The position numbers and the translations under genes were made by a program. The notes beneath the pieces were generated by a model. That model was not told the DNA's origin and ran no database searches. It saw only the letters and a list, made by a program, of their open reading frames with translations. Positions 318-21,595 of a stretch of DNA of 25,724 bases are shown piece after piece. Origin of the DNA: a virus (lineage: Duplodnaviria; Heunggongvirae; Uroviricota; Caudoviricetes); the IMG/VR virus record IMGVR_UViG_3300006217_000018, positions 1-25,724 of that record; one strand, 5' to 3'. Each line of letters begins with the position of its first letter. Position 1 is the first letter of the stretch.

Positions 318-616
318 AAGAAAAACCTATGAAGGCTATGCCATATGAAATAAAACAAAAGTTAAGGCAGTATGCAAAGATTCAAACTAAGGCAAAAGAA
401 CTTTCAAAAGAAATAGGTGATATGCTTGAAAGCTATGGAGTACCAGAAGATAATTTAATTGCTCTAGGTAATACTTCATGGGATTGCGAGGAACCGCAAA
501 CGGAAGGACTTGCTTTTCTACATAATGGGGAGTGTAGTGATTTGGAGGAAACAATAAAGGATATAGAAAGAGTATTTCTATACTTTGTAAATAGAAATAG
601 TGCAGAAAAGTCTTGA
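311..616 (+). CDS. Hypothetical protein (101 aa)
   Basis: GTG start with AGGAG 6 nt upstream; its TGA stop is the left arm of the junction palindrome. Confidence 0.75.
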   Translation: MLKEKPMKAMPYEIKQKLRQYAKIQTKAKELSKEIGDMLESYGVPEDNLIALGNTSWDCEEPQTEGLAFLHNGECSDLEETIKDIERVFLYFVNRNSAEKS

Positions 617-629
617 AATGTTGCTTTCA
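614..629. repeat. Junction palindrome TGAAA-TGTTGC-TTTCA
   Basis: Perfect 5-bp arms; begins at a stop codon and is followed by GGAG RBS; start of duplicated block B. Confidence 0.75.
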
Positions 630-644
630 AGTGGAGAAAAAATT

Positions 645-860
645 ATGATTTGTTTGGATTGTGGTAATATGGATATAAGATATGATGAAAAAGAAAAATC
701 GTATCATTGCAATAATTGTGGTTCTCGTAATTTAGGGAAAAGAAAAGATGGATGTAAATATATGAGAGATAATGGATTGTGTGGTAAAAATCCGGCAGCT
801 ACATCATCAGGAGAGTGTGAAGCTTCATGCAGTTATTATGAAAGCAATTTTAGATCATAA
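645..860 (+). CDS. Cys-rich zinc-ribbon protein (71 aa)
   Basis: CLDC...CNNC plus 4 more Cys; ATG 645 preferred over track start 600 because of the GGAG RBS and the paralog at 18112. Confidence 0.85.
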   Translation: MICLDCGNMDIRYDEKEKSYHCNNCGSRNLGKRKDGCKYMRDNGLCGKNPAATSSGECEASCSYYESNFRS

Positions 861-866
861 ATTCTG

Positions 867-895
867 TTGACTTGTGCATAATAGCAGCATATAAT
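867..895 (+). promoter_or_regulatory. sigma70/A promoter of the TA operon
   Basis: TTGACT-17 bp-TATAAT; conserved in copy 2. Confidence 0.85.
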
Positions 896-899
896 ATAA

Positions 900-927
900 G
901 TACAGTAAATAGTACGGTTTTAAGTAC
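900..927. promoter_or_regulatory. Putative YefM-type operator: three GTAC cores at 12-bp period
   Basis: GTAC at 900, 912, 924; same spacing in copy 2; resembles the TGTACA 12-bp centre-to-centre yefM-yoeB operator. Confidence 0.7.
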
Positions 928-942
928 GGAAAGAGGTGCGTT

Positions 943-1200
943 ATGATTGCAACAAAACAAATGGATGTAAGAGCAAATATAAAAAAGTATTTTGATATGG
1001 CATTTAACGGGGAACCAGTGATTGTATCCCGTAAAGAGAATAAAAATGTAGTTATAATATCTGAAGCGGAATATAATGAATTGGCAAAAGCTAAAAAAAA
1101 TGCTGAATATCTTGCGAAATTGAATAGAGCAGATGAGCAGATTAAAAACGGTCAAGTAGTAACGAAAACTATAGATGAGCTTCTGGCAATGGAGGATTAG
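943..1200 (+). CDS. yefM: Phd/YefM-family antitoxin
   Basis: N-terminal ...DVRANIKKYFD...GEPVIVSR..KNVVIISEAEY pattern; directly upstream of a YoeB-type toxin. Confidence 0.92.
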   Translation: MIATKQMDVRANIKKYFDMAFNGEPVIVSRKENKNVVIISEAEYNELAKAKKNAEYLAKLNRADEQIKNGQVVTKTIDELLAMED

Positions 1201-1203
1201 TCT

Positions 1204-1467
1204 ATGAAAATCACTTTTGCAGAAGATGGATGGAGTGAATATCTCTATTGGCAGACTCAGGATAAAAAGATATTAAAGAAGATAAACCAATTATTACAAA
1301 GTATAGAACGGGATGGAGCATTGCAAGGAATAGGTAAACCAGAACCATTAAAATATGGGAAATCAGGATCGTTTAGTAGACGGATAGATGACGCAAATCG
1401 GTTGGTTTATGAGGTTTCTGATGATCATATTATTGTGAAATCTTGTAAGGGACATTATAATGATTGA
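1204..1467 (+). CDS. yoeB: Txe/YoeB-family mRNA interferase toxin
   Basis: EYLYWQ..DKK..KKIN.L..I, GIGKPEPLK, SRRIDDANRLVY, GHY motifs. Confidence 0.95.
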   Translation: MKITFAEDGWSEYLYWQTQDKKILKKINQLLQSIERDGALQGIGKPEPLKYGKSGSFSRRIDDANRLVYEVSDDHIIVKSCKGHYND

Positions 1468-1515
1468 AATAGGGGTTTAGATAATCAATCCATATGATTA
1501 GATTTGGAGGTAATT

Positions 1516-19008: not shown

Positions 19009-19470
19009 ATGAGTGAATTTAAAGCATTAGATGGTGGAAAACCTTTTATACAGCCAGAGAGTCCTTTTTTTTTACTTACAGAGGATGTAGATGGAAATGT
19101 ATCTTATTGTTGGTGGAATAATGAAAATGATCTTCGGGCGGATGCTGTTGAGAGAAGAGGTGATGGAGAACGGATCATCTATGCAATTGAAATTTCTTCT
19201 TGTAGAGATGTAGAAATTCCTCCTGGGTATACAGTTGATGATTTCATTGAGGAAGTCAATTCTGCTTATGATGATGCAAAAGGAAAAGATTTTGATAGTA
19301 TTGTTTTAGCGATAGAAACAGATACAGAACAGACTTATTATATCAATGATACAGAAGATGGGTTCCAGAGTGATGAGTTTGATTATTATTTTGATGATCT
19401 GGATTCTATTGCGGAAACTCTATTTAATGAAAAGATTATTGGAAAACCTGTGGAGATTAGAATAGAATAG
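19009..19470 (+). CDS. Very acidic hypothetical protein (153 aa)
   Basis: GGAGG RBS; about 39 D/E vs 12 K/R. Confidence 0.8.
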   Translation: MSEFKALDGGKPFIQPESPFFLLTEDVDGNVSYCWWNNENDLRADAVERRGDGERIIYAIEISSCRDVEIPPGYTVDDFIEEVNSAYDDAKGKDFDSIVLAIETDTEQTYYINDTEDGFQSDEFDYYFDDLDSIAETLFNEKIIGKPVEIRIE

Positions 19471-19572
19471 ATTAGATTTTGAAAGCTATTTTTATGTGTG
19501 GATGGGGATAACATGAATATAAATCCAGATAAAGTAAAAGAATTAGTTATGTTATAAATTGGAGGAAGATGT

Positions 19573-19723
19573 ATGGATAAGAATTAAATATTAGAATTAC
19601 TGTAGAAAATACATGATATGATATACAATGGACAATGTATCGCTTGAGGATATTGAGGAAGTTAGAACTTTATTTAATTCTATTATAGATGATTTTATAA
19701 AGGAAAATATTATAGTTAAATAA
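19573..19723 (+). pseudogene. Decayed small gene
   Basis: GGAGG RBS, MDKN*ILELL*KIHDM... shifting to DNVSLEDIEEVRTLFNSIIDDFIKENIIVK*; final TAA begins a palindrome. Confidence 0.5.
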
Positions 19724-19736
19724 AATGCTTTTTTTA
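19721..19736. repeat. Junction palindrome TAAAA-TGCTTT-TTTTA
   Basis: Perfect arms; starts at a stop codon, before a G-rich RBS. Confidence 0.65.
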
Positions 19737-19747
19737 AGGGGGGTTGT

Positions 19748-20208
19748 ATGAATTTTCGAGATGAAATGATAAATGAAAAAGGAGATATTATGACATCAAG
19801 AGAAAAGGTAGAGCAGATGAAAGTTGATAAAGATAAGTATAGAGAAGAAGATATCAAAAAAGTCGTTAATATATTTGTGGATATTATAAAAGAATCTTTT
19901 AGAAATGTATCTCCTGAAAATGAATACATAGAAAATTGGTTTGGAAAAAGAATATATACAGATAGGAAAGTTTTAAAAATAAATTTTCATATAAGTGAAG
20001 TTGATTATTCTTATAGTGGTAGAATATCTTATGAAAAGCGTGATATGGATGAATACTATTTAGAAATACTTCATGCAGATCGAGAGGCGAAAAAAATATA
20101 GAAATTGAGATTAAGAGATGGTTATCTCAAAATGATATAATAATTGAAAACATCAAAAGTTGGGGGAAAAATGGTTTTTGGTATGATTTAAAAATGTATT
20201 TGAATTAA
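19748..20208 (+). pseudogene. Hypothetical gene with a frameshift in an A7 run (20090-20096)
   Basis: Removing one A extends the ORF with NIEIEIKRWLSQNDIIIENIKSWGKNGFWYDLKMYLN*, ending just before the palindrome at 20210. Confidence 0.6.
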
Positions 20209-20209
20209 A

Positions 20210-20225
20210 TAAAAATCTAGTTTTA
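20210..20225. repeat. Junction palindrome TAAAA-ATCTAG-TTTTA
   Basis: Perfect arms; 1 nt after the restored stop, before GAGGTG. Confidence 0.7.
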
Positions 20226-20248
20226 AGTCGTAGATCAGAGGTGATATT

Positions 20249-20781
20249 ATGGAGAAAATAACAAAATTCAAGGATATAAAGCAATTTACAACTGATGGTA
20301 ATTACAATGTGTGTTACCCTCTTCCAAGTCTTGTGAAATACATCGCAGAAGAAATAGAAGAGATGAGTTTGCAACTGAATCCGGAATTTCAGCGTGGACA
20401 TGTTTGGACTGAGAATCAACAGATTGCATGGTTAGAATATCATCTTAGAGGAGGAAAATCGGGAAATACAATTTATCTGAACAATCCATTTTGGCATAGT
20501 GATAGGCAACCTAAAGATGGTGAATATAAAGACTATGTATGTGTAGATGGTTTACAAAGAATAACTGCAGCACAGAGATTCATAAACAACGAAATCAAAG
20601 TGTTTGGATCTTATTTCTCTGAATATGAGGATAGAATAAATATTACTGATGCAGTAATGTAAATGATTTGAAAACAGAAAAAGAAGTATTACAATGGTAT
20701 GTGGATATGAATTCTGGCGGAACACCACATACAAATGATGAGATTGAACGAGTAAAGAAAATGATTCGGGAACTTGGATAA
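20249..20781 (+). pseudogene. Minimal DUF262-domain gene, frameshifted near 20655
   Basis: LNPEFQRGHVW, CVDGLQRITA; C-terminus VNDLKTEKEVLQWYVDMNSGGTPH...* lies in another frame. Confidence 0.85.
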
Positions 20782-20806
20782 TTAATAATATATGTGAGGT
20801 GTTGAC

Positions 20807-21547
20807 ATGAGCAATCCTACAAATAAAGATTTTTTAGATTTCCTTTTAGAAAGATTTAAAATAGAAAGAGAGAAGTTTGACCGATCTGGCGTATATGCAT
20901 ATACGCAGCGTTTACTTGCCTATAATTCAAATAAAATTGAGGGAAGTACACTTACGGAGGAACAAACAGCTTCTTTGTTTGATAATGGAACTTTGCCAAA
21001 ATCTAACGATTATTATAGGGCGAAGGATGTTGAGGAAATGAATGGGCATTTTCTTATGTTTAATAAGATGTTGGATACGTTGGATAAGGCATTATCGCAG
21101 GAACTGATAAAACGATTCCATTATGAGTTGAAATCTGGAGTATTTGAAGATCGTGCCAATGGATATGCTATTGGTGATTATAAGAAGCGTCCTAATATGA
21201 TTGGCATGTATCAGACTGTAAGACCAGAAAATGTGACACATGAGATGTATTTACTTATGGAGTGGTATAATAATCAGGATATAAATATTTCTGTATTGGC
21301 TGAGTTTCATGCTAGATACGAAAGCATTCATCCGTTTCAGGATGGAAATGGTAGAACAGGCAGGCTGATTCTTTTCAGAGAATGTCTAAAGAATAGTATT
21401 GTACCTGTTGTGGTTGAAGATGTAAAAAGAAACGAATATTTGGAGGCTTTGAAAGAATATAGAGAAGAAAAATCTTTGAAAAAGTTGAAAAGTCTGTTTG
21501 GAAAAGAGCAGCAGTTCTATTTGGAAAAGTGTAAGTACTTTATGTAA
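20807..21547 (+). CDS. Fic-domain protein (class II), copy 2
   Basis: HPFQDGNGRTGR and SNKIEG; about 88% identical to 2110-2844. Confidence 0.95.
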   Translation: MSNPTNKDFLDFLLERFKIEREKFDRSGVYAYTQRLLAYNSNKIEGSTLTEEQTASLFDNGTLPKSNDYYRAKDVEEMNGHFLMFNKMLDTLDKALSQELIKRFHYELKSGVFEDRANGYAIGDYKKRPNMIGMYQTVRPENVTHEMYLLMEWYNNQDINISVLAEFHARYESIHPFQDGNGRTGRLILFRECLKNSIVPVVVEDVKRNEYLEALKEYREEKSLKKLKSLFGKEQQFYLEKCKYFM

Positions 21548-21595
21548 GGTTATAATAAATGTTCGATTTTTATTTGGAGTATATAAACTATGGCA

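Follow-up and report, generated by a model that had tools for sequence, protein, structure and literature searches.

Phage genomes in which one short sequence recurs between many small genes raise the question whether that sequence serves to exchange the genes, to regulate them, or to punctuate them. This question is posed by a stretch of 25,724 nucleotides (the window) from a virus of the Caudoviricetes, which forms the first 25.7 kb of the linear 89.7-kb IMG/VR record IMGVR_UViG_3300006217_000018 (CheckV completeness ~36%). The window has a GC content of 0.34, carries nearly all of its genes on the plus strand, and is a run of small genes with defence-type or addiction-type cargo. A first-pass annotation had described a recurrent 16-bp palindrome at the junctions of accessory genes and interpreted it as the recombination or capture site of an integron-like cassette system. 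Comparison with related phages revealed that the element marks preferred borders of gene gain, loss, and replacement, and that crossovers lie inside it, which upholds the recombination part of that interpretation but not integron-like capture. Tentatively, we read the element as a dyad at the borders of gene slots that exchanges genes by crossing over within itself, possibly through a core-site reaction of the Xer-like kind.

The element follows the consensus W-TRAAA-N6-TTTYA-W, i.e., two inverted arms of 5-6 bp around a 6-bp centre, 16-18 bp in all. The seven exact sites known beforehand (614, 2849, 3106, 14405, 18082, 19721, and 20210) were all present, and four more exact matches, unlisted earlier, were found at 19974 and 20376 (both inside genes), 21652, and 24670. 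Exact matches were enriched over shuffled sequence, with 17 strand-matches at 11 places versus 4.06 ± 2.36 in dinucleotide shuffles (0 of 100 reached 17), and the enrichment was also evident in stop-to-start gaps, which held 7 sites versus 0.47 ± 0.70 when each gap was shuffled in place (0 of 2000 reached 7). The class of one-mismatch matches overall barely exceeded chance (97 versus 78 ± 10); such matches are mostly noise, and each site of this kind was therefore judged singly. Among those proposed previously, 2066, 15142, and 16752 were backed by relatives, the former two by counterparts with identical centres at syntenic places, whereas 14846 and 16382 lacked counterparts and are probably chance matches. 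The site at 21556, which had been taken for a variant with a 7-nt spacer, is a diverged paralogue of the 2849 site that has an extra base in its centre or, alternatively, a mismatch in its right arm. Taken together, 11 of the 13 sites of the earlier list have counterparts in related phages.

These relatives were collected by an IMG/VR search with the Fic protein, which yielded about ten related contigs, four of which (G001-G004, 129-163 kb) were taken whole. The clade is a small group of uncultured gut phages of ~130-160 kb, partly proviral, with a provirus flag on three of G001-G004 and a tyrosine integrase at one end in G001, G003, and G004. In the near-complete G001, G002, and G004 the structural genes occupy a minus-strand arm, while a plus-strand arm of ~90 kb or more in G001-G004 carries replication and nucleotide-metabolism genes, including a PolIII-alpha-type polymerase, an NAD-dependent ligase, and an anaerobic ribonucleotide reductase. 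These phages probably infect an anaerobic Firmicute. No near-identical phage records were found; the nearest cultured phage is Clostridium phage Amboise, with a polymerase identity of only 50%, and in this phage as well as in contig G005 the motif occurred at background level only.

Sites in the relatives were called with an arms-only position weight matrix at scores of at least 10.5-11.5, a 9-bit threshold being too loose (in G000, reverse-strand hits exceeded forward ones). The motif was found 47-56 times per strand in G001-G004, versus 5-19 for a reversed-pattern control, and 25-38 times in the fragments G006-G008, versus 2-15 for the control. A near-complete genome contains approximately 35-40 sites at called gene junctions and ~70 in total above the score threshold. 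Gaps of 25-60 nt contained the motif in 50% of cases in the plus arm and in 9% in the minus arm, as compared to 0 of 202 shuffled gaps. The motif thus spans the entire early/replication arm of the relatives, where nearly all copies lie, and is therefore not limited to accessory genes, contrary to what had been supposed, although the regulatory core and terminase segment of the window is indeed empty, with no exact site between 3122 and 14404. The placement described for the window extends to the relatives: among 183 junction sites in five genomes, most motifs begin 0-13 nt past the first base of the stop codon, most end 10-28 nt before the next start, and the left arm doubles as stop codon in 49. 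An IMG/VR scan for one specific 16-mer returned 83 matches, mostly chance occurrences in unrelated viruses and informative only in known clade members, and a metagenome scan with the 122-aa protein encoded upstream of the TCCGGT site returned one locus, 100% identical, with no new contexts.

What remains constant from genome to genome is the order of the centres rather than the genes around them. Any two of G001-G004 have 17-21 centres in common without a single order break, for which the chance expectation with 17 sites is ~3e-15. At about 80% of the shared sites the two genomes have neighbours of different families on both sides, and among 225 non-redundant allelic pairs, both 40-nt flanks were dissimilar in 112 and both similar in one. 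The 34 centres that are present in at least three sequences have a mean of 0.9 distinct upstream and 0.9 distinct downstream gene families per genome, and the sites with centres TCTTGG, GCGTTC, and CCGAAA are 16-mer islands between genes of very different lengths. The sites are fixed, collinear slot borders; they do not belong to mobile cassettes. Genes were called and protein families defined with a simple caller and BLAST clustering made for this analysis; the crossover tests described below (block ends, identity profile, and arm polymorphisms) were performed at the DNA level and are independent of both.

Where two allelic sites share one neighbour, similarity begins at motif positions -6 to +3 (23 pairs) or stops at positions 14-24 (~25 pairs), and a stop codon at a distance of 85-169 nt does not move these borders off the motif edge. 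The mean identity profile has the shape of a step, rising from ~0.3 to ~1.0 at motif position 1 or dropping after position 16. In an all-against-all BLAST comparison, in which block ends are fuzzy by a few bases, left ends peaked at -3 to +3 and right ends at 14-17, with very few ends between the motif and the ribosome-binding site, so that breakpoints of gene gain and loss in the relatives fall preferentially at the motif, as the proposal of recombination sites implied. Among blocks of at least 90% identity and at least 300 bp, 41 of 160 left ends and 38 of 153 right ends (25-26%) lay at a motif edge, compared to 0.8% of random and 2.9% of random non-coding control positions, while other intergenic or gene-edge positions took 42-43% of the sharp block ends. 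Polymorphisms in the arms locate the exchange within the element. When the upstream flank is shared, positions 2 and 5 agree (0.93 and 1.00) and position 15 is random (0.60 versus 0.49); when the downstream flank is shared, position 15 agrees (0.94) and position 5 is random (0.69); and when neither flank is shared, position 15 is likewise random (0.53). Each arm goes with the flank next to it, the centre is shared by both partners, and therefore the crossover lies between the arms. The same pattern of arms and flanks would also be expected from general recombination within the shared 12 bp.

The sequence logo of 181 unique junction sites reads W-T-R-A-A-A(w)-N6-T-T-T-Y-A-W, followed by an enrichment of G at +19 and +20, where the ribosome-binding site starts. 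Arm positions 1, 3, 4, 13, 14, and 16 are invariant, the 6-bp centre is variable, and the outer arm positions are barely conserved. In long gaps the motif is nearer to the stop codon than to the start (29 versus 12), in part owing to small genes missed by the caller. No covariation was detected between R2 and Y15, with an odds ratio of 1.0 in one set of sites and, in a second set, a number of Watson-Crick pairs even below expectation, and an A-C combination at these positions was present in 52 of the 181 sites; covariation was also absent from the other mirrored pairs, including the flanking W positions 0 and 17. Folding energies of ten copies from the window were -0.7 to -5.2 kcal/mol, with z-scores that were mostly not significant against shuffled sequence, and in several copies the optimal structure leaves the arms unused, 614 and 3106 being among the few copies able to form stems of 7-8 bp. 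A hairpin, whether in RNA or in single-stranded DNA, was rejected on the basis of the absent covariation and weak folding, which together identify the element as a dyad-symmetric site in double-stranded DNA with independently varying half-sites. Half-sites of this kind would be typical of recognition by a protein dimer or by two recombinase subunits. Consensus scans revealed no sigma-70 promoter, intrinsic terminator, or T tract at any site, good promoters being located away from the sites (867-895, 3973-4001, and 18334-18362), and an Rfam search at gathering thresholds yielded nothing at the sites and only a weak tRNA-like match in the window.

The window itself contains two copies of the slot array, and in both its sites keep the centre order of the relatives. 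The first, shorter copy (1..3121, plus strand) presents TGTTGC, TTCTAG, Fic, GTTCAG, and GTGAAA in this order. Its first site, at 614..629 (centre TGTTGC, exact match), has a left arm that is the stop codon of the upstream gene and a centre that is identical in five relatives' sites. The site at 2066..2081 (TTCTAG, one arm mismatch) is the slot border upstream of the Fic gene; its 16-mer is identical in G001, L004, and L006, which differ in their upstream genes, and the blocks common to the window and the loci L001, L004, and L006 begin at 2064-2066. The border downstream of Fic is the exact site at 2849..2864 (GTTCAG), which is identical in G003 with another downstream gene, and here block ends fall at 2849-2865. 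The exact site at 3106..3121 (GTGAAA) has its centre in common with G001-G004, where it lies between four different gene pairs, and the block shared with L001 ends at 3122.

The second copy (14405..21572, plus strand) presents ACTTGA, TTCGAT, TCTGGT, TGTTGC, TGCTTT, ATCTAG, Fic, and GTTCGA, an order that matches G001-G004, L004, L006, and L009. It opens after a 266-aa DUF262 gene with the exact site at 14405..14420 (ACTTGA), the centre of which recurs in five relatives' sites, and where blocks end at 14418 and one begins at 14413. The centre of the site at 15142..15157 (TTCGAT, left arm CGAAT) is identical in four relatives' sites, with different flanking genes in all of them. The degenerate site at 16752..16767 (TCTGGT) is the counterpart of the relatives' TCCGGT site, with eight one-mismatch counterparts versus 0.8 expected and a rank in the centre order that fits the relatives. 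At 18082..18097 lies the exact TGTTGC paralogue of the 614 site, and blocks shared with L004 and with the window's own 614 region begin at 18081/18082. The exact site at 19721..19736 (TGCTTT) is the counterpart of TGCTGT at a collinear position and has six one-mismatch counterparts; the exact site at 20210..20225 (ATCTAG), the counterpart of TTCTAG, has four, and blocks shared with L003 and L005 begin at 20197-20212. The alignment of both Fic paralogue blocks stops at the diverged copy of the 2849 site at 21556..21572, where the block shared with L005 also ends (21570). Segment 1-3121 is a diverged partial second copy of 17280-21573, with 82-90% identity in pieces and unrelated genes in some slots; the pairs 614/18082 and 2849/21556 are consequently not independent, as they are paralogues of a segmental duplication. 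The paralogue block 614-1515 / 18082-18984 begins exactly at the dyad site.

These patterns suggest a mechanism in which two related phages meet, e.g., an incoming phage and a resident prophage, and cross over inside allelic copies of the element, each arm being kept with its own flank and the centre being common to both. Whole gene slots would thereby be swapped in register, leaving gene order undisturbed. The arms would be bound by a dimeric protein, the exchange would be a core-site reaction of the tyrosine-recombinase (Xer-like) kind, and identity of the 6-bp centre would decide which partners recombine, such that only allelic sites do so. It is conceivable, albeit short of probable, that each genome carries dozens of heterospecific sites with the same arms and a locus-specific 6-bp overlap, of which a phage or host Xer-like recombinase would recombine only the allelic ones. 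If this is true, any gene block would be exchangeable in register, like laboratory cassette exchange with lox variants, and deletions within one genome would be avoided. A tyrosine recombinase, for which the flanks of the window were searched, was found in the near-complete relatives but not in the 89.7-kb record. Each near-complete relative encodes, as a candidate, an Xer-like enzyme inside the array, in which R, HxxR, H, and Y are present and for which the best structural-database and NCBIfam matches are XerH and XerS, far below family cut-offs. A MrpR-like identity of these proteins was considered and rejected, as there was no MrpR sequence match in the PDB, the best matches were XerH, XerD, and XerA, and the catalytic residues are intact. 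No serine recombinase was found.

Several observations weigh against the core-site reading. No tyrosine recombinase (PF00589) is present in the 89.7-kb record, ~36% complete, and the in-array recombinases of the relatives are poorly conserved (G003 versus G001, 33%; G004 unrelated beyond the family), whereas the arms are invariant. The arm pentamers are 6 bp apart in the phage element and 8 bp apart in difH, and position 2 retains some linkage to the centre (0.71-0.81 versus 0.55; 0.71 where both flanks differ). That all 6-bp centres differ within each genome (34 of 34 to 39 of 39) is expected by chance (~0.8 by our own estimate) and therefore has no power as a test of heterospecificity. The data moreover derive from nine contigs of one clade, in which pairs share history and counts are not numbers of events, and we know of no precedent for dozens of active recombination sites per genome.

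A serious possibility, though less than probable, is that the element is a binding site of a regulatory protein (an operator or roadblock) that doubles as linker, its shared 12-18 bp being used by general or relaxed homologous recombination. The conserved centres would then be a by-product, as only sites that are still identical would recombine. The dyad with its independent half-site variation suits a dimeric DNA binder, and the restriction to one transcription arm and the placement inside operons suit an expression-linked role; however, no regulator could be linked to the motif, and the conserved XRE-type helix-turn-helix (HTH) gene, a candidate repressor, has no motif in its divergent promoter region (3915-4058). 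Three relatives are flagged as provirus, with an end integrase, and the number of copies per kb resembles that of stoperators (PMC9283540). SPbeta has a repressor with a tyrosine-recombinase fold that acts on a repeated element (PMC10516654), and the promoter-early stem-loops (PeSLs) of T4-type phages are an example of regulatory repeats through which modules can be shuffled (PMC2839356). Nevertheless, an identity of 12-16 bp is very short for general recombination, searches for RecT, ERF, Rad52, and RecA found none (AAA_24 in G004 only), and a conserved centre is unnecessary for a plain operator. A core site and a regulator site that serves as microhomology are not separated by the data, since under either reading crossovers would be expected inside the core that allelic sites have in common. 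It is unlikely that the element is punctuation without a recombination role, with selection retaining those recombinants that have intact genes and one motif per junction. Although breakpoints in phage mosaics generally lie at gene borders, and the sharp block ends at other intergenic or gene-edge positions noted above are in line with this, punctuation does not explain why borders stay on the motif edge when the stop codon is remote, why the interval from motif to ribosome-binding site is nearly free of block ends, why polymorphisms of either arm go with the adjacent flank, an observation that puts the exchange between the arms, or why 16-mer islands persist with both flanks replaced.

Quite unlikely is an action at the RNA level, as intercistronic hairpin or protein-recognition site for processing (e.g., by a phage MazF-like nuclease), transcript stability, or control of translation. 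The clade has conserved MazF/PemK genes, the motif has a constant place between stop codon and ribosome-binding site, and stems are possible in the 614 and 3106 copies, but compensatory change is lacking at every mirrored pair, as illustrated by the frequent A-C combination at 2:15, most folds do not surpass shuffles, several bypass the arms, and the locus-specific centres and crossovers are left unexplained. Most improbable of all is the integron-like capture proposed initially, i.e., promoterless cassettes with attC-like sites and a dedicated integrase. The attC site, an imperfect palindrome with paired R/L boxes that is preserved in its structure, measures 57-141 bp, is recognised as a folded single strand, and belongs to the 3' end of its cassette, and the system requires IntI beside attI. 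The phage array resembles an integron in its small, same-direction, mostly promoterless genes that are divided by a recurring imperfect inverted repeat, and tyrosine recombinases do occur in the relatives. These enzymes, however, score 27.8-50.8 bits on TIGR02249, which has a cut-off of 265, so that no IntI was found; the 16-18-bp site is too short and has no attC-type structure. Cassette polarity is absent as well, the same centre being accompanied by the same upstream gene in 27 pairs and by the same downstream gene in 25, the sites are fixed and collinear landmarks, and the array includes replication genes.

The closest parallels are other short sequences at module junctions. Lambdoid boundary ('linker') sequences and the dRS3/NIME mosaics of Neisseria are short conserved junction sequences that are thought to guide recombination; to our knowledge, neither consists of dyads with locus-specific centres or extends as a collinear array over the greater part of a genome arm. 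The element described here is a new variant of such phage mosaic linkers. The PeSLs of T4-type phages are composites of a sigma-70 promoter and a terminator hairpin that recombine ectopically, giving mini-circles, and recombination between their copies has been proposed as a driver of modular shuffling (PMC2839356, PMC4122927). Like the element described here, they are short intergenic repeats between small variable genes and form the borders of insertions, deletions, and replacements between related phages; the present dyad, however, is 16-18 bp long, lacks a promoter and a stable stem, has a centre specific to its locus, and is exchanged in register between alleles. The inverted arms, 6-bp central region, and TGAAA(A)/(T)TTTCA-type arm sequences are shared with Xer/dif systems such as XerH/difH and XerS/difSL; XerH recognition is base-specific at just the 5 innermost bp of either arm, which flank a central region of 6 bp (PMC5241119), and the difH arms terminate in TGAAAA / TTTTCA (PMC5357621). 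However, dif occurs once per chromosome and serves dimer resolution, whereas the phages have dozens of sites that differ in their centres. The stoperators of Cluster A mycobacteriophages, which are asymmetric, oriented, and monomer-bound (PMC9283540, PMC6550527), and SPBRE, present in ~10 copies at promoters and bound by MrpR, which has a tyrosine-recombinase fold (PMC10516654), are likewise short motifs that recur many times in the small intergenic gaps of temperate phages. The genome layout of the clade moreover resembles that of SPbeta, being that of a large temperate phage of Firmicutes that has a polymerase of the PolIII-alpha type. In the literature examined on Cluster A phages and SPbeta, neither locus-specific centres nor crossovers at the sites were found to be described.

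Besides the two Fic genes, which occupy slots of both array copies, the window encodes several DUF262 (GmrSD_N) proteins and, in duplicate, a YefM (Phd) antitoxin / YoeB toxin pair (943-1467 and 18410-18934), each copy preceded by a near-consensus sigma-70-type promoter (867-895 and 18334-18362). In G001, G002, and G004 a YefM-YoeB pair is located immediately upstream of the in-array Xer-like recombinase, and one array slot of G003 (L094:13911-14948) holds a TnpB-type gene with OrfB_IS605 and Cas12f-like TNB domains. Region 3632-4445 has a switch-like layout, in which the conserved XRE-type HTH gene (3645-3914, minus strand), with a bidirectional terminator-like hairpin at 3632-3658, lies opposite a MazF/PemK gene (4059-4445); between the two are a perfect TTGACA-17-TATAAT promoter on the plus strand (3973-4001) and a TTGATA-17-TATAAT promoter on the minus strand (3963-3935). 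This module is repeated at ~27.9-33.1 kb of the record with 65-68% identity. At 5925-8045, and again at 30572-32651 of the record, the gene for a DUF262/ParB-fold protein of 466-486 aa lies 3 nt downstream of one for a sigma-like protein of 218 aa (weak Sigma70_r3 match); this candidate DNA-binding pair is kept in all five genomes examined.

Two stretches of the window differ in composition from the remainder and are probable foreign inserts. Segment 8800-13300 has a GC content of 0.38-0.45 versus ~0.30, contains no motif, and encodes an HTH/terS-like protein (9955-10476), a Lar-like zinc-ribbon protein (10454-10912), and a TerL-like protein (10902-12230, Terminase_6N). It has no counterpart in the relatives' 20-kb Fic-centred loci L001-L010, the only stretches compared with the window, and may be an inserted satellite-like or foreign packaging module. 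Directly after the second Fic slot, an IS66-family transposase gene (DDE_Tnp_IS66, E 2.5e-39; 22.1-23.4 kb) is located in a stretch (21900-23400) with a GC content of 0.50. The weak tRNA-like Rfam match is at 24748-24831 (32.3 bits, gathering score 29), where ARAGORN makes no call. In the minus arm of G002 (L102:13334-17031), one of two adjacent genes for ~615-aa proteins matches phrog_8308 (unknown function, 847-position profile), and we wondered whether this pair could be a split YonO-like single-subunit RNA polymerase as in SPbeta.

An old question on phage mosaics is whether exchange is guided at short conserved linkers or whether joining is random and followed by selection. In this clade the linker is explicit and countable, with dozens of copies per genome, and its middle identifies the locus while the genes between are replaced freely. 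As the slots house toxin-antitoxin, Fic, MazF, and DUF262 genes, the turnover of defence-type cargo is likewise organised by the element. Should the exchange prove to be enzyme-catalysed, it would represent a new use of tyrosine recombination, namely the programmed in-register reassortment of a DNA virus, and the sites would be an orthogonal set ready for use in genome engineering. If the element is instead a regulator site used as microhomology, it would be the clearest case known to us outside the T4-type phages of a regulatory repeat that organises modular evolution, and it would point to a new regulator in a large gut-phage clade.

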